Source of the DNA: Candidatus Falkowbacteria bacterium
GTDB taxonomy: Bacteria; Patescibacteriota; Patescibacteriia; Patescibacteriales; UBA12465
DNA length: 64,000 bases
Assembly: GCA_037137655.1 (NCBI GenBank)
Contig: JBAXJX010000002.1
Location: 37,730-101,729 of the forward strand
Direction: 5' to 3'
This document shows, in pieces, positions 2,431-34,834 of this stretch. The stretch's first letter is position 1; each line of letters begins with the position of its first letter. The position numbers and the translations under genes were made by a program. The notes below the pieces were generated by a model. The model saw only the letters and a list, made by a program, of their open reading frames with translations. It ran no database searches and was not told the DNA's origin.

Positions 2431-2459
2431 TTGACATTATAAAAATAAACTTATAAACT
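2431..2459 (+). promoter_or_regulatory. Promoter firing into ORF-free DNA
   Basis: TTGACA (2431-2436), 17-nt spacer, TAAACT (2454-2459). Confidence 0.5.
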
Positions 2460-2465
2460 ATCTAA

Positions 2466-2897
2466 AGTTCATTAATAAATATTACTAGCTAGTTCAATTC
2501 ACGGAGTTATAAACCTTTAAAATTAAGTTGATGAAAAGACGTTCTGATCACAACAAAGGATCTACTATTATTTCCTAAAAAAATTAAAACAAAACTACCG
2601 GACATTTGTCCAATTTCTCAATTAACTTATTGTTTTATTTAAATTTTTTTACAATGAAAAAGCACCTTATAATTCGACTGTGTAGCTTAAGCAGCACAAC
2701 CAACAAAAAAAGCGAAATGATTATGGCAAAAACGTAAATTGGTGAAAAATGAAGCTTCGAAGTGAGCTAAATAAAGGATCTCCATTTTGGAATCTAAGCT
2801 CAAAAAACAAAAAGTAATAAAAAAACAATCTAAATGGTAAAATTTTACCAAAAAATACTCTCCACCCCTAATTTTATAAAAAATTAGGGGTTTTTTA
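2466..2897 (+). ncRNA. Candidate non-coding transcription unit (~430 nt), related to the island leader at 31839-32184
   Basis: Bounded by the promoter at 2431-2459 and a strong terminator (CCCCTAATT/AATTAGGGG plus T-run, 2865-2897). No ORF of 60 codons or more on either strand. Contains several local hairpins and sequence blocks shared with 31843-32169. Confidence 0.35.
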
Positions 2898-2935
2898 TTT
2901 ACCTAAAATTAGCTTATTTTAGTCATTACTACCCC

Positions 2936-2964
2936 TTGACGGCTTTATTCAGATGTGTTATTAT
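2936..2964 (+). promoter_or_regulatory. Promoter for the 2998 ORF
   Basis: TTGACG (2936-2941), 17-nt spacer ending in TGT (extended -10), TATTAT (2959-2964). Confidence 0.6.
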
Positions 2965-2997
2965 CACTACCTATAGTTACTTAAAAATTAAATACAC

Positions 2998-3568: not shown

Positions 3569-4654
3569 TTATGCCACTTTTACATCAGGCATATTAATTT
3601 TATCCATAATCATCTTTCTAACACGAGCCATCAATTTAGCGTCATCTTTCAAGAACTGTTTAGCAGTTTCCCGTCCAACTCCAAGTTTTAAATCACCCAT
3701 AGTGTAGGAAGCGCCAGACTTTTTAACAATGCCGTGTTCAACAGCAAGATCTAATAAATCACCGGCAATGGAAATACCCTCATTATACATGATATCAAAT
3801 TCAGCTGTTTTAAACGGCGCCGCTACCTTGTTTTTGACAATCTTAGCTTTCACCCGATTACCAATAATCTTTTCGCCTTGTTTAAGTTGAGCGGCTCGAC
3901 GAACTTCCACGCGCACTGAACAGTAAAACTTCAAAGCATTACCGCCAGTGGTTGTTTCAGGACTACCAAAGAACACCCCAATTTTATTTCTAATCTGATT
4001 AATAAAAATAACAATCGTATTGGTCTTGGAAACGATACCGGTTAATTTACGTAGAGCTTGACTCATCAAACGAGCTTGCAAGCCCATGTGCTGATCGCCC
4101 ATATCGCCCTCAATTTCCTTCTGTGGCACTAAAGCGGCCACGGAATCGATAACTACCACATCAACCGCATTAGAACGCACCAGCGTCTCTACAATCTCTA
4201 AGGCTTGTTCACCTGTGTCAGGCTGTGAAATTAATAAATCCTTAATATTCACACCGATCTTTTGAGCATAATCTGGATCCAAAGCATGCTCCGCATCCAC
4301 GAAGGCGGCAATACCACCCAATTTTTGTACTTCAGCCACAATATGTTGAGCTAAAGTTGTTTTACCAGATGATTCTGGTCCAAAAATCTCAATAATGCGA
4401 CCCCGAGGTACACCGCCAATACCAAAAGCAAGGTCTAATGATAAACATCCAGTGGAAACCGCATCGACATCAGTCTTGCGAGCATCACCAAATTTCATAA
4501 TTGAACCTTCACCAAATTTACTTCTAATTTGACTCATAGCTTCGGAAGCCGCCTCTTGTTTCTTGGCCGACTCCTTGTCCTTAGCGATAGTGTCCTTGTC
4601 TTTAACAACAAGCTCTTTAACACTCTCTGGAATCACTTTTTTCTCCTTCTCCAT
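3569..4654 (-). CDS. recA: Recombinase RecA
   Basis: Walker [11 protein letters not shown], then [10 protein letters not shown] and [13 protein letters not shown]. The track ORF begins at a TTG (4684); the ATG at 4654 (MEKEKKV) is the likelier start. Confidence 0.95.
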
Positions 4655-29979: not shown

Positions 29980-30402
29980 TTAAGCATTAACAGAGGTTTC
30001 TTGTAACTGCTGGTATTTTTTAAATTCCAAGGTTTCAGCGAGATATCTACAGGCCTCAATACGATTGTAAACCAAAGAACATCCAGCTAAACGTAAGCTT
30101 TCACTATAATTAGAACATTCGGATATTCCAATTATTTTTTCAGGTTCAGAATGAGCAAAACGGGCAATTGATACAAATTTAAGGATTTCCGCAACATTAC
30201 TTTCAGTGGATATTGCACAAAAAATTAAATCGATACCTTCATCGTATTGTAAAATACGATGAACTCTTTCTGTGTCAGTACTGGTAGCGCTAATAATGCT
30301 TATTCTTTCATCAGCTAATGCTCCCTCGAACACCGCTTCGATAATTTTCTTGACAATGAGGTTCTCGTCCTCAATAATCAAAATTTTTAATTTTTTTCCC
30401 AT
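29980..30402 (-). CDS. Stand-alone receiver (REC)-fold protein lacking the phospho-acceptor Asp (pseudo-receiver), paralog A
   Basis: KILIIEDE (beta1) and KIIGIS (beta4) resemble CheY. Hand alignment puts Ala/Cys (DLIFCAIS) at the D57 position and Asn (LVYNR) at K109. About 45 percent identical to the 34421-34834 product. Confidence 0.7.
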   Translation of the reverse strand: MGKKLKILIIEDENLIVKKIIEAVFEGALADERISIISATSTDTERVHRILQYDEGIDLIFCAISTESNVAEILKFVSIARFAHSEPEKIIGISECSNYSESLRLAGCSLVYNRIEACRYLAETLEFKKYQQLQETSVNA

Positions 30403-30474: not shown

Positions 30475-30505
30475 TAATAAAAATCTTTTATAAAAAATGT
30501 TTTCT

Positions 30506-30514
30506 TGCTATACT
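30506..30514 (+). promoter_or_regulatory. Extended -10 promoter giving a leaderless TrmB-family mRNA
   Basis: TGCTATACT ends 6 nt before the ATG at 30521. Confidence 0.5.
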
Positions 30515-30520
30515 ATCAAT

Positions 30521-31273
30521 ATGATAAAAAACTTTCTCCAAAATGTCGGTCTAAACGATAAAGAAATAAAAGTATATTTAGAATTATTACGAGTGGAAAA
30601 CGACTCTGTTTTAGATTTGTCCAAAAAGACCAAAATCTTACGTACTTCTATTTATCCAATTTTAGATTCCCTAAAAAGTAAGGGCTTAATTGTTGAAGTG
30701 AAAGTTGGGGCTAAAATTCGTTTTCAAGCTGAAGCGCCGGAAAAAATTGAAACTTACATTGAAACTCAAAAAATAAAGCTAGATGAACAAGCTCAATTAG
30801 CCAACGAATATATTCCTCAATTAAAAAGCATGTCCCGCCAAACCGGCGAAAAACCGATCGTTAAAGTGTATGAAGGGCGAGAGGGAATATTCAAAGCCAA
30901 TGAAGAGTCTTTTGGTTATGGAAATATATCGGATGATGACACTGCCTACTACATTTACCCGTTTGATCTATTAGAAAATCTTTTCTCAAATGAAGAATTG
31001 AAAAAAGGCACTAAGCAAAGAACTGCTAGAAAAATAAAATCAGAAACTTTATACACATATTCTAAAGGGGAAAGGACTCCAAGTGAAAATTCTAAAAGAA
31101 TAAAGATTAATGAAAAAAAATATCCCCTCACTTGTGACATCAGCATTCATAAAGATAAAGTTAGAATTAACACCTTAGGAAAATCATTATCATCACTAGT
31201 AATAAAAAGTCAGGATATCGCCGACACTCTAAAATCTCTCTTCAAAATAGCTTTCGACAATTATAAAGATTAA
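30521..31273 (+). CDS. TrmB-family winged-helix transcriptional regulator (paralog 1)
   Basis: N-terminal HTH LGLNDKEIKVYLELLR..LSKKTKILRTSIYPILDSLKSKGLI. The ATG at 30521 (MIKNF) fits the promoter better than the track start at 30497. Confidence 0.8.
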   Translation: MIKNFLQNVGLNDKEIKVYLELLRVENDSVLDLSKKTKILRTSIYPILDSLKSKGLIVEVKVGAKIRFQAEAPEKIETYIETQKIKLDEQAQLANEYIPQLKSMSRQTGEKPIVKVYEGREGIFKANEESFGYGNISDDDTAYYIYPFDLLENLFSNEELKKGTKQRTARKIKSETLYTYSKGERTPSENSKRIKINEKKYPLTCDISIHKDKVRINTLGKSLSSLVIKSQDIADTLKSLFKIAFDNYKD

Positions 31274-31274
31274 A

Positions 31275-31600
31275 AAATAAGGGACTGTATTGCTACAGTC
31301 CCAGTTTTGATTTTTTGAGGCAACACATGAGGCCTCGTCTACAAAATGACATAAAAAACAATTTTTTTTGTTTTTTACCGTCTGATCACTTTTGTGATCT
31401 TTCATTTTTGTTAATCACCCATTACTTTAAAATTTAAGGGTTGAACAACTACTTAGATATTTATTGTCAATTAATATTAACTAAAAATCTCGATCATGAA
31501 CTAATATTTTTAAATTCACGGAGGGGTATCCTTGATACCCCGACCGTAAAATATATTAGTCGTTCATGGCTAAAACTTTATGGTTAAATACTAAGTTAAC
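31275..31600 (-). ncRNA. Candidate ORF-free minus-strand transcript convergent with the TrmB gene
   Basis: Runs from the consensus promoter at 31608-31636 to the shared terminator at 31281-31316. Contains a GC-rich interrupted 12-bp hairpin (31518-31547) and a GATCAC-tttt-GTGATC hairpin. Only short ORFs are present. Confidence 0.35.
31281..31316. terminator. Bidirectional terminator after the TrmB gene
   Basis: GGGACTGTA-ttgc-TACAGTCCC with T-runs on both strands. Confidence 0.75.
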
Positions 31601-31607
31601 AAAAAGT

Positions 31608-31636
31608 ATTGTATCACACAAAACAATAAGTGTCAA
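31608..31636 (-). promoter_or_regulatory. Near-consensus promoter with no downstream ORF
   Basis: On the minus strand, TTGACA, 17-nt spacer ending in TGA, TACAAT. Confidence 0.6.
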
Positions 31637-31747
31637 TAGTTAATAAAAAAATGTCAAAAATAAATATCATTTTTTTAACAATATAAAAAATTAATCCTGT
31701 GGATAAGTCAGAATATAGTCAATAATTTAAAACATTTAATTGAACAA

Positions 31748-31775
31748 AAAGCCTAAATAATTTGGGCTTTTTTTA
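31748..31775 (+). terminator. Hairpin plus T-run in the non-coding gap (usable on either strand)
   Basis: AAAGCCT-loop-GGGCTTT followed by TTTTTT. The complementary strand also ends in TTTTGTT. Confidence 0.5.
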
Positions 31776-31803
31776 ATATTTTAATAAAAACTGACAAAAG
31801 GTA

Positions 31804-31832
31804 TTGACATTTATGTTTTTGCATGCTATTGT
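31804..31832 (+). promoter_or_regulatory. Promoter of the island's rightward transcription unit
   Basis: TTGACA (31804-31809), 17-nt spacer ending in TGC, TATTGT (31827-31832). Confidence 0.6.
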
Positions 31833-31838
31833 TTGTTT

Positions 31839-32184
31839 ACAATTCATTAAAAACATGGTCCATTAATTTTCTGATTTATGTTTATAAGCTACTGAGCTTT
31901 AAATAGCCAGAAGCGCAAAACACATTTTTTATAATCACGCTTGTCTTTATGCCTTATCGGCATAAACCAGAAAATTTTTGGACACCGGTTTATAGATCCC
32001 ACGTAAAGGCGTGGAAAACTGATAAAAGTCAGTCCGGGATATACGATATGAATTACAGAAAACTTACCGCCGCCGACCAACTGTTACTAGCTAACGGTTT
32101 CAACCTTAATGGAAGTCCAAAAGGTGAAAAGTCACAAAGCTTACGAGCTGTGATTAATACTCCAATGGGAAACCGGAGGTAAAG
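31839..32184 (+). ncRNA. Candidate structured leader or ncRNA (unique 5' segment of the island transcript)
   Basis: GC-enriched compared with its surroundings. Perfect 8-bp hairpin TTTATGCC/GGCATAAA (31946-31966), whose 3' arm can alternatively pair with GGTTTAT (31987-31993). Further hairpins CCACG/CGTGG and CTGA/TCAG. Overlapping ORFs on both strands (77 and 63 aa) make coding doubtful. Confidence 0.35.
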
Positions 32185-32565
32185 AATGTAGGCCACCGTT
32201 CCGGTTAAAACGGCCTAGCGATTTTTGGCGAAACCAATTTCTACGCTAGTTCTCTGTCTTTCTTTTGATTAATTCTCATTATGGGGCCAGCAGCCACATA
32301 ATGAGATTATCAAAATCGAGGCTTTTCCCATGTGCACGTGGGTAATTAGATTTGTATGTTTTACTATTACTCGAGGATAAAACAAGCCTTAAGTGATCAC
32401 AAAGATACAAAATCTGGGGAAACAATTTTTACTGGCCCGATCAACCGTAAAAAAGAAATTGGCAAAAAAACGGGCAATCGCATTAATTTTTCCAAAGTGA
32501 AAATTTAGTGTCGATTGCCCTCATTATTCAATTCATAATTTTTAAATTGTGAATTGATAGTGAGA
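32185..32565 (+). repeat. Copy A of a ~380-nt non-coding element (candidate structured RNA)
   Basis: Aligns end to end with 32806-33190. The differences are compensatory in at least four helices. No ORF of 60 codons or more on either strand. Confidence 0.6.
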
Positions 32566-32596
32566 AATAGTTCTTTAAACTTAAAAAAATATAACC

Positions 32597-32791
32597 ATGG
32601 AAACGATCATTTTTATTATGGCGATTATAATAATTATTGAAACTACAATTATTATAAACTGGAAACTAAAGAAAAAAATGTCAAAAACACAAAAATCACG
32701 AAACGAGGAGTTTTTTCAAAGTATAAAAGAAACTAACCAATATCTTAAAAGGCTCGAAGAAGAACTACCAGATTTAAATAATCGCAAATAA
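32597..32791 (+). CDS. Small membrane protein candidate (64 aa): one hydrophobic helix plus a charged tail
   Basis: ATG start. N-terminus IIFIMAIIIIIETTIII followed by a K/E-rich segment. It lies exactly between the two element copies and has the shared ATAGTT leader motif 30 nt upstream. Confidence 0.45.
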   Translation: METIIFIMAIIIIIETTIIINWKLKKKMSKTQKSRNEEFFQSIKETNQYLKRLEEELPDLNNRK

Positions 32792-32805
32792 ATAAAATAT
32801 TTAAA

Positions 32806-33190
32806 ATTATAGGTCGCCGTTCCGGGTAAAACGGTCTAGCTATTTGGCGCAACCAATTTCTTAGCTAGTTCTCTGTCTTTATTTTGATGGTGTCACATTA
32901 TGGAGCCAAAGGATACATAGATGTTGATAATTAAAATTAAGGCTATTACTCATGTGCACGTGAGCAATTAGATGATTTTTTTACTCTTGCAAGAGGATGA
33001 TCCAGTTGGACGAACCTTAAGTAATTGTAAAATCTATCTTCTGGAGAAAAAATTTTATTGGTCTGATCAGCCGTAAAAAAGAAATTGGCAAAAAAACGGG
33101 CAAGCACATTATTTTTTCCAAAGTGAAAATTTAGTGTGGCTTGCCCTCATTATTCAATTCATAATTTTCAATTGTGAATTGATAGTGAAA
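32806..33190 (+). repeat. Copy B of the ~380-nt non-coding element
   Basis: See copy A. It starts about 15 nt after the stop of the 64-aa ORF and ends about 40 nt before the next ATG. Confidence 0.6.
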
Positions 33191-33230
33191 AAATGTTATT
33201 TAAAAATTTAAACTTCAAAATCATACTGAC

Positions 33231-33959
33231 ATGGAAAGACATCTGATCAACACCGAACTAGTTTTAGATTTAATCAACGCTTTTTCTAAAGCTTTAATTA
33301 AAAATAAACGCAGCCGAAAAAACGCGGAGATACTAATTTACTACCACACAGAGAAAATTAATTACACTATCGCGAACCTACTAAACCGTCCTGGTAAAGC
33401 TTATAATTTTTATGAAAATAAATTATTTGCCAGACGAGCAGGAAGTGATTATTTTAATCTCGAGTATGTTAACAACATTCCTTTAGAAGAAATCATGACC
33501 AGCGAACAAGTGGTTGAGATTATAAATCTATTCACCAATGTTTTTAAAACTAACTTTTTCAACAAAGCGGTGGCCGAAGCATTATTATCAGATCTAGAGG
33601 CAATTAATGAGGCGGTTGATGGTCTATTTGAGATGGATCCGGCCTTCAATTTATTTGAATACATGATGTTTACTAGAAACCTACCACTTAATGATTTCAA
33701 AGAATACCCACTTAGTGGCGGCAAGATTATTATTTGCACCAACCATAAACTATGCGAATCTTATGGCGTTAAAATTGGCAGTAAAGTTCAAATTAATTCA
33801 ATGACTAATACTAGAGATGTAATTATTGGCGTTGCCCCAAGTCCGCATTCTAATAACAATGAAATAGTTATCTGGCTTAAAAATGATTCCAACGAAATTA
33901 ACAGAGTTGGTTATTTAACATTAAGCGGATTACAACCCCTCGTTATTATCAATGAATAA
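33231..33959 (+). CDS. Hypothetical protein (242 aa): two similar helical modules plus a beta-rich C-terminus
   Basis: ATG start. Internal repeat (ELVLDLINAFSKALIKN.. and EQVVEIINLFTNVFKTN..). No recognisable domain. Confidence 0.65.
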   Translation: MERHLINTELVLDLINAFSKALIKNKRSRKNAEILIYYHTEKINYTIANLLNRPGKAYNFYENKLFARRAGSDYFNLEYVNNIPLEEIMTSEQVVEIINLFTNVFKTNFFNKAVAEALLSDLEAINEAVDGLFEMDPAFNLFEYMMFTRNLPLNDFKEYPLSGGKIIICTNHKLCESYGVKIGSKVQINSMTNTRDVIIGVAPSPHSNNNEIVIWLKNDSNEINRVGYLTLSGLQPLVIINE

Positions 33960-34420: not shown

Positions 34421-34834
34421 TTAGCAACAAACTGCTTCTAGCTTTTCTTCTTTTTGAAAGTCTAATGTTTCTTTTAAGTATCGGCAAGCGTTCATTTGAT
34501 TGTAAACATTTGTACAACCAGCCAACATTAAACTTTTAATATTATCAGCGTAATTTGCAATTCCAATTATTTTTTCTGGTTCTGGGTGAGCAAAACGAGC
34601 AATTGATACAAATCTAACAGTGTCTTTAATATTGTTCTTACTAGAAACAGCAATAAAGATTAAATTAACATTTTGTTCGTATTGCAAAGCGCGGTGAACT
34701 TTTTGACTGTCACTACTAGGAACACTAACAATTTTTATTTTTTTATCCGCAATTGCACTTTCAAACATTGTGGCAATAATTTGACTGACAAGAAGACTAT
34801 CATCTTCAATGATTAAAACTTTTAAACTGTTCAT
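34421..34834 (-). CDS. Stand-alone pseudo-receiver protein, paralog B
   Basis: VLIIEDD, NLIFIAVSS (Ala at the D57 position), KIIGIA, NVYNQ (Asn at K109). Paralog of 29980-30402. Confidence 0.7.
   Translation of the reverse strand: MNSLKVLIIEDDSLLVSQIIATMFESAIADKKIKIVSVPSSDSQKVHRALQYEQNVNLIFIAVSSKNNIKDTVRFVSIARFAHPEPEKIIGIANYADNIKSLMLAGCTNVYNQMNACRYLKETLDFQKEEKLEAVCC

Follow-up and report, generated by a model that had tools for sequence, protein, structure and literature searches.

The segment between 31804 and 32184 of the window, the whole stretch of 64,000 nucleotides of Candidatus Falkowbacteria DNA analysed here, very probably consists of three parts and does not form a single RNA. A conserved promoter comes first, then ~140 nt of folded mRNA leader, and last a 44-codon gene of a small protein. 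The position of these parts at the head of an operon offers, with good confidence, the best explanation of the region. The comparison of related Parcubacteria loci demonstrates the conservation of the promoter, the coding nature of the 44 codons and the conservation of pairing in the leader, which is probably a cis-regulatory element of the operon. The initial annotation had preferred an RNA function across all 350 nt and had left a small protein in doubt. The RNA function was borne out for 31836–31977, where the helices carry compensatory changes, and not for 32048–32182, which is coding. The doubt about the protein was justified for the start of the 77-codon frame and the next 32 codons, which are unconserved, and not for the 44-codon frame, which is intact in the homologs. 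The coordinates are collected in Table 1.

Table 1. Features of the segment and its surroundings, with positions in the window unless a related locus (L and a number) is given.
Feature	Position	Strand	Description
Intrinsic-terminator-like hairpin and T-run	31746-31772	+	just upstream of the promoter
Promoter	31792-31832	+	TGACA (31792-96), -35 TTGACA (31804-09), 17-nt spacer, TG-extended -10 TATTGT (31827-32)
Composite promoter in relatives	L005-9, L011, L014, L017, L022, L030, L031, L033, L036		upstream of small ORF or operon
Structured leader motif	31836-31977	+	helices P1, P2, P3; covariance model R1
P1	31867-31873/31968-31974		closing helix
Junction J1/2	31873-31888		GAUUUAUGUUUAUAAG
P2	31888-31914		sequence variable, pairing kept
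Junction	31938-31945		CGCUUGUC
P3	31946-31953/31959-31966		8-bp hairpin, arms TTTATGCC/GGCATAAA
Insert in leader	31978-32047	+	70 nt; closing CCGG/CCGG helix (31985-88/32034-37) around hairpins 31999-32014 and 32018-32033
5' extension	31949-32047	+	non-coding; turns the 44-codon gene into a 77-codon ORF
Small-protein gene	32048-32182	+	44 codons; small basic protein (MNYRKLTAADQLLLANGFNLNGSPKGEKSQSLRAVINTPMGNRR)
Element copy A	32183-32596	+	~330-nt structured part, then ~75-nt conserved module before ATG 32597
Element copy B	32803-33237	+	78% identical to A
~75-nt module, sites	32500-32596, 33125-33230; L008 12300-12410; L014 4150-4260; L016 4665-4770, 5425-5530; L022 3805-3915, 4300-4405		covarying GC hairpin, TCATTATTCA, hairpin TCATAA...TTGTGA, TGATAGTG, ~30 AT-rich nt
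HCxIC protein gene	L006 3575-3868; L007 12314-12607; L011 3596-3895; L013 3421-3726; L025 3624-3929; L031; L033; L035		
Hammerheads	L022 3273-3328; L030 2773-2828; L011 4297-4349; L025 4011-4066; L006 ~4050-4110		

The locus and its promoter

The segment lies within a 1.3-kb gap devoid of long ORFs, between the gene of a TrmB-like, winged-helix regulator (30497–31273; Pfam TrmB match, 3e-12) and a 64-aa ORF at 32597. In all loci examined, the small gene is located 0.6–1.1 kb downstream of the TrmB-like gene. A 965-kb contig and three other assemblies carry the region without a difference, so four independent assemblies share the sequence. The GC enrichment reported in the initial annotation is confined to part of the segment: 31978–32182 has 42–44% GC, against 20% just upstream and 35.7% in the window, and the first 140 nt past the promoter reach merely 30%.

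The promoter TTGACA-17-TATTGT with a TG extension, described earlier at 31804–31832, is present. Bare hexamers of this kind are not unusual in AT-rich DNA: 3.3 kb contain 19 sites, and 14.1 are expected. The 64-kb window has a single copy of the extended motif TGACA-N7-TTGACA-N17-TAnnnT, with 0.00 expected, and ~13 distinct loci of related Parcubacteria carry the composite promoter in the orthologous place. In three loci (L011, L033, L035), it is followed by a gene of ~100 aa, termed here HCxIC, and then by the small gene. As part of the whole operon model, the promoter is in all likelihood of the sigma-70 type, and the transcription start is placed near 31839, at the beginning of the conserved UUUACAAUU. 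The terminator-like hairpin that precedes it would insulate the promoter against upstream transcription; a similar hairpin with a T-run precedes the promoter in L006, L007, L013, L017, L022, L036 and L037.

The region upstream of the promoter contains further conserved signals. The best promoter match of the region (TTGACA-17-TACAAT plus TG, 11/12; window 31636→31400) lies on the minus strand and is directed leftwards into a conserved element. In the relatives, this element comprises GGAGG-N5-ATG CAR GAC TAA, a covarying GC hairpin, CCCTAAGnGGG and, later, AAAGGAGG-N7-RTG GGN GAY TAA. It thus holds two mini-ORFs of three codons, each preceded by a Shine–Dalgarno (SD) sequence, though such sequences are rare in the genome. 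The window copy has lost both SD sequences and has no Rfam match. Between the two divergent promoters, an AT-rich spacer (~20% GC) carries a perfect, inverted DnaA box (GTTATCCACAG, 31698–31706), with TGTCA/TGACA motifs repeated alongside it. In L006, L007, L009, L011, L013, L017, L018, L022 and L036, the promoter likewise has a DnaA box, 100–190 nt ahead of it. The conserved perfect box and the AT-rich stretch raised the hypothesis of an oriC. The GC skew is negative on both sides without a switch, and therefore the region is not the chromosomal origin; the spacer could be a promoter region under DnaA control, or what is left of a replicon origin.

The TrmB-like gene, the minus-strand element, the DnaA box, the promoter, the small ORF and a set of variable genes form a recurring unit in all fetched loci. 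Its neighbors vary by genome and include trigger factor, GreA/LysRS, radical SAM, Wzy, MFS and TrmD genes, among others. In the fetched loci, the genes located 3′ of the small ORF differ even among close relatives, which makes this a hypervariable island. In the window, two paralogous receiver-domain-like proteins on the minus strand (29980–30402, 140 aa, and 34421–34834, 137 aa; about half of the residues identical by eye) flank the block of the TrmB-like gene, the small ORF, elements A and B, and the 242-aa and 121-aa genes. Longer relatives of these proteins occur within the islands of L005, L011 and L022. The tblastn searches against phages and plasmids, together with IMG/VR, returned no relatives, and an origin from a mobile element was rejected on the basis of this absence across the phage, plasmid and viral collections.

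A related region had also been proposed at 2466–2897. It has no blastn similarity to the segment (E<10, word size 7), no match to the covariance model R1 and no TPMGN-type ORF. The surrounding 2432–2997 (plus strand) consists of a terminator, a promoter-like TTGACA...TAAACT and ~560 nt without an ORF, followed by an uncharacterised gene of 171 aa, and resembles the segment analysed here in layout only, not in sequence.

The small-protein gene and the TPMGN family

Sequence comparison demonstrates that 32048–32182 is protein-coding. In 14 distinct loci, an ORF of 44–57 codons ends with TPMGN-x(1-3)-stop. The nucleotide identity by codon position is 0.56/0.61/0.37 over these loci, and 57% of the amino-acid-identical codon pairs (1184 of 2085) use different codons. 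The invariant residues themselves are spelled by several codons: three for T, four each for P and G, and two for N. Stop codons interrupt the other five frames in almost all loci, the sole exception being one reverse frame in L008. Such a third-position, synonymous bias in an intact frame is what the initial annotation had named as evidence against its own RNA reading, and it is found at 32048–32182. The overlapping ORFs of 77 aa (plus strand) and 63 aa (minus strand) that it listed do exist. Its argument that a missing SD sequence speaks against coding is void. Only 7 of the 47 window ORFs of at least 150 aa have an SD-like motif and 40 (85%) lack it; the missing SD is therefore uninformative. 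In this genome, "GC-rich, hairpin-dense, no SD" is no argument against coding. The 44-codon gene is very likely translated without an SD sequence, as are most genes of the genome, a point that belongs to the same operon model as the promoter type.

The family of the protein was reached indirectly. As single queries, the 77-aa ORF and the 44-aa peptide matched only themselves and a repetitive 990-aa junk protein. The relatives were found via the neighboring TrmB-like gene and then by a profile. In each of five genomes whose TrmB-like regulators are 66–69% identical, the regulator gene is followed by a long gap, and in four of them this gap contains a short ORF ending with ...TPMGN-x-R-stop. A motif scan of metagenome contigs added six loci. 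A profile search with ten sequences yielded 75 protein clusters of 50–67 aa (E = 1e-22 to 5e-11), and further contigs were fetched via the retrieved proteins. All 75 clusters are annotated as "hypothetical", have no Pfam domains and come from Paceibacteria, Nomurabacteria and similar MAGs. The typical members have 50–57 aa and an invariant C-terminus, ...II-x-TPMGN-x-R. The N-terminal two thirds of the family are conserved and predicted to fold (pLDDT ~90), and the AF2 model based on the 75-sequence alignment consists of a helix, a short beta bridge, a second helix and a flexible TPMGN tail (pLDDT 81). The function searches in Pfam, NCBIfam, PADLOC and PHROGs, the profile and sequence searches of the PDB, and Foldseek against the PDB were negative, and no relevant mention of "TPMGN" was found in the literature searched. 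A resemblance to HicA (GF..GS, then ..TxP) was dropped, since it had no support in Pfam. The TPMGN family is restricted to Parcubacteria and previously undescribed.

A second protein, of ~100 aa with a conserved FEV..(H)HCxICxxR, adjoins the TPMGN gene on either side in 8 of ~19 distinct loci, and the two genes are arranged like a two-gene module. In the window, an HMM search of the six-frame translation found neither this partner gene nor a remnant of it.

The window protein is the weakest member of the 75 clusters in the profile search (55 bits, E = 1.4e-9 against 5.8e9 sequences). It has lost five residues through an in-frame deletion, and with them the near-invariant Q..FE and helix 2, which is absent from its AF2 model (pLDDT 72). 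The protein still has every fully invariant residue of the family (A, L, G, TPMGN), with the stop codon in the family position. Based on the low score, the missing Q..FE and the model without helix 2, the protein may be functionally impaired or decaying.

The extent and the nature of this gene can be read in other ways. A reading of all 350 nt as a switch-like, non-coding RNA with an accidental ORF is almost certainly wrong. Such a reading draws on the conserved hairpin, on the folding excess over 31838–32190 (z = -4.1) and on the single-query searches without a protein homolog. The excess, however, resides in the leader (z = -5.6) and is weak within the ORF (z = -2.2), and the codon-position pattern, the synonymous spelling and the frame intact in 14 loci and 75 clusters refute the non-coding reading for 32048–32182, leaving it to stand only for 31836–32047. 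A real protein of the full 77 codons, starting from the hairpin ATG at 31949, is highly improbable. The NCBI, ENA and Logan records do annotate a 77-aa gene, and the frame is open from 31949. Yet the first Met of the 50–57 aa family aligns with M34 of this ORF (32048), by which the gene is assigned to its last 44 codons. The upstream frame closes within 1–9 codons of the aligned Met in six relatives (L006, L007, L011, L013, L016, L017), and the N-terminal 33 codons have no conservation as protein among the relatives. The ATG-bearing hairpin covaries as RNA, and in L009 its nucleotides are conserved in a different reading frame. Far more weight, though still on the doubtful side, belongs to the reading of the window gene as a decaying remnant that is in frame by chance, with the promoter and leader mattering as drivers of the downstream genes. 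This would account for the lowest score in the family, the lost Q..FE and helix 2, the absence of the frequent HCxIC partner and the extra inserts in the leader and downstream; against it, the deletion preserves the frame, the invariant A, L, G and TPMGN remain with the stop in its usual position, and the sequence is identical across the four independent assemblies. A 44-codon protein gene at the head of the operon is the preferred reading.

The public annotation is thereby corrected from 77 to 44 aa. The "hypothetical protein" entries KBB91_02555 and IPF86_01845 of Parcubacteria MAGs belong to the same family and have the typical 50–57 aa. The window member differs from them in being shorter by the deletion and mis-annotated with an N-terminal extension of 33 codons.

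The leader and the RNAs of the island

The leader can be aligned over 140 nt past the start site in the window and in L009, L013, L022, L030 and L037. RNAalifold on this alignment predicts three helices, and the single-sequence minimum free energy (MFE) fold of the window gives the same three. The covariance model R1 scores 151.7 bits in the window and 97–124 bits in the other five loci, and a model built from four sequences recovered the remaining two at 97–109 bits and nothing else in 247 kb. Among the six sequences, which represent ~5 independent lineages and from which the structure itself was derived, 93.5% of the cells are paired and 10 of 21 pairs carry a compensatory change. The controls with partners slid by 1–3 columns reach 37–50% pairing and 0–2 compensatory pairs, and none of 500 shuffles reached the observed values. 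The compensatory pairs are distributed over P1 (three, with the arms ~100 nt apart), P2 (four) and P3 (three), and the G-U pairs fit the plus strand. The folding excess over 31839–32047 amounts to z = -5.56, with 0 of 200 shuffles reaching it. The most conserved nucleotides of the leader are its two junctions, GAUUUAUGUUUAUAAG and CGCUUGUC. In all six loci, the motif begins 3–6 nt past the -10 element and ends ~15–75 nt before the ATG. About two thirds of the small-gene loci have no leader, and the 5′ UTR there is 30–60 nt long; the leader is therefore dispensable for the small gene and an accessory to it. A search of 31500–32700 against Rfam 15, at gathering and permissive thresholds, returned no family, with mir-7386 as the best match at 22.4 bits. 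The leader motif is previously undescribed and has no Rfam counterpart.

The 8-bp hairpin noted earlier at 31946–31966 is exact and occurs once in the window, with 0.01 occurrences expected; it forms P3. The further hairpins of the initial annotation are also present (31999–32014, 32018–32033, ACUGUUA/UAACGGU and AGCU/AGCU). It had moreover proposed a switch in which the 3′ arm of P3 pairs with GGTTTAT (31987–93). This partner exists in the window, but it sits in the 70-nt insert, which is specific to the window; L009, L013, L022 and L037 lack it, and there the ATG follows P1 after ~15–50 nt. A different partner of the same arm, UUUAUG of J1/2 (31877–31882), can form a helix in all five sequences tested. 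This alternative helix is 100% paired, against 30–57% for slid partners, and includes one compensatory event; the shuffles do not separate it from chance, the variation being too low for them to discriminate. With regard to a riboswitch expression platform, no terminator follows the motif, and the start region is unpaired in the MFE structure, without sequestration of the start site.

Other readings of the leader are less likely. The perfect palindrome of P3 may be regarded as a DNA operator of a transcription factor, e.g., the TrmB-like protein, since a winged-helix regulator gene is always adjacent and symmetric changes in half-sites can mimic covariation. This is quite unlikely, as P3 is located ~108 nt past the start site and U-G pairs occur at its apex in L022 and L030. 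The operator reading also leaves P1 and P2 unaccounted for: P1 joins segments separated by 100 nt and carries three compensatory changes, and P2 keeps its pairing despite sequence variation, neither of which is expected of an operator. Somewhat less improbable is leader-peptide attenuation, in which the translation of a mini-ORF (AUG 31879: MFISY-stop) would remodel P1, P2 and P3. At a fixed position of J1/2, within the segment able to pair with P3, each of the six leaders has an AUG or GUG with UUU directly after it, and the resulting peptides are MFISY, MFVRF, MFARF..., VFKKFLGS and MFKKFLSS. The mini-ORFs, however, range from 5 to 31 codons and show no synonymous-type pattern, there is no terminator to attenuate, and conservation at the nucleotide level explains the observations equally well. 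A folded mRNA leader remains the preferred reading of 31836–31977.

Between 31772 and 34500, no terminator was found on the plus strand, and the element A is therefore probably co-transcribed with the small gene. Elements A and B differ by indels of 1, 2 and 8 nt, and are therefore non-coding. None of their 90 predicted pairs is broken despite 22% divergence; three compensatory changes and ~12 G-U-preserving changes separate them, and the G-U changes fit the plus strand. The closing helix of 9 bp is formed by CCAAUUUCU/AGAAAUUGG. From their sequences, A and B look like a large structured RNA on the plus strand, with no Rfam match. The possibility that A is a decayed HCxIC gene was dropped, as the HMM search of the six-frame translation was empty and the A/B indels are not multiples of three. 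The ~75-nt module at the end of A and B recurs across the related islands, directly before the ATG of many genes that are otherwise unrelated, and could be a shared promoter/operator (with TTGATA as -35) or a shared 5′-UTR element.

Type III hammerhead ribozymes occur in the intergenic gaps of the orthologous operons. Their CUGAUGA / stem II / GAAA core is complete, and a small hairpin precedes each of them. Their scores of 35–42 bits are under the Rfam gathering score of 48.5. In the window, Rfam and a core-motif scan found no hammerhead, and a CYGAUCA...GAAA stretch in A and B was rejected as one, being without stem II and G8. No paper pairing "hammerhead ribozyme" with "Parcubacteria" was found in the literature searched.

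Proposed mechanism and known systems

In the proposed model, the mRNA would start near 31839 from the promoter at 31792–31832, and its first 140 nt would fold so that P1 encloses the variable P2 and the 8-bp P3, joined by the two conserved single-stranded junctions. The lineage-specific insert of 70 nt with its two hairpins would follow, and then the 44-codon gene, from which transcription would run on into element A and the genes beyond, without a recognisable terminator. The leader most likely serves to bind a trans-acting factor, which would recognise the conserved junctions. This is favored because the conservation is concentrated in the junctions and there is no sign of a terminator or of start-site sequestration. 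By analogy with autoregulated ribosomal-protein leaders, the small basic protein itself is a candidate binder. Alternatively, the leader may toggle between P3 and the helix of J1/2 with the 3′ arm of P3, which would alter the stability of the mRNA or the initiation. A more far-reaching proposal has a small chance: the leader would represent a new class of RNA switch, ligand- or protein-binding or coupled to the mini-ORF, that controls a small protein, confined to Parcubacteria, with a ribosome- or RNA-acting invariant TPMGN tail, and both would gate a hypervariable operon with spacers made of large structured RNAs (A and B in the window) or, among sister genomes, of hammerheads.

The analysis defines a family of ~75 clusters whose C-terminal TPMGN is invariant, and a covarying leader missing from Rfam. 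Both are restricted to Parcubacteria, in which almost no regulation has been characterised experimentally. The locus is tied to a TrmB-like regulator and heads a fast-changing island whose gaps contain large structured RNAs or hammerhead ribozymes. These features make it a tractable entry to post-transcriptional control in CPR bacteria.

Several known systems share parts of this organization. The autoregulatory leaders of L20 and S15 likewise consist of a structured 5′ UTR directly before the gene of a small Lys/Arg-rich protein that heads an operon, and have conserved junction nucleotides flanked by covarying helices. In contrast to them, the leader described here has no sequence or Rfam relationship to either, its protein is not ribosomal and only a candidate binder, and it is present in about one third of the loci. 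Riboswitch and attenuator leaders are similar in their position between the promoter and the first gene, and in the two possible, mutually exclusive partners of the 3′ arm of P3, its own 5′ arm and a conserved segment further upstream. They differ in having a terminator or a platform that sequesters the start codon, neither of which is seen here; the gene context suggests no ligand, and the comparison includes six examples. The best Rfam match over the hairpin is the Bacteroides-1 RNA (RF01694), which has in common with it a UAUGCC...GGCAUA hairpin after an A-rich stretch. This match (20.3 bits against a gathering score of 43, E = 1.2) has no equivalent in the orthologous leaders, and the identity was rejected as a resemblance at chance level.

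SecM, MifM and TnaC are regulatory nascent peptides that arrest the ribosome. The small ORF may be comparable to them, which we take as a lead only, in heading an operon and in having an invariant block at the extreme C-terminus by the stop codon (TPMGN-x-R-stop), followed by structured RNA. Unlike these peptides, the small protein is conserved and predicted to be folded over its N-terminal two thirds, and has no secretion or membrane signal. The parts of the locus are thus of familiar kinds, and the protein family and the leader motif are both new.
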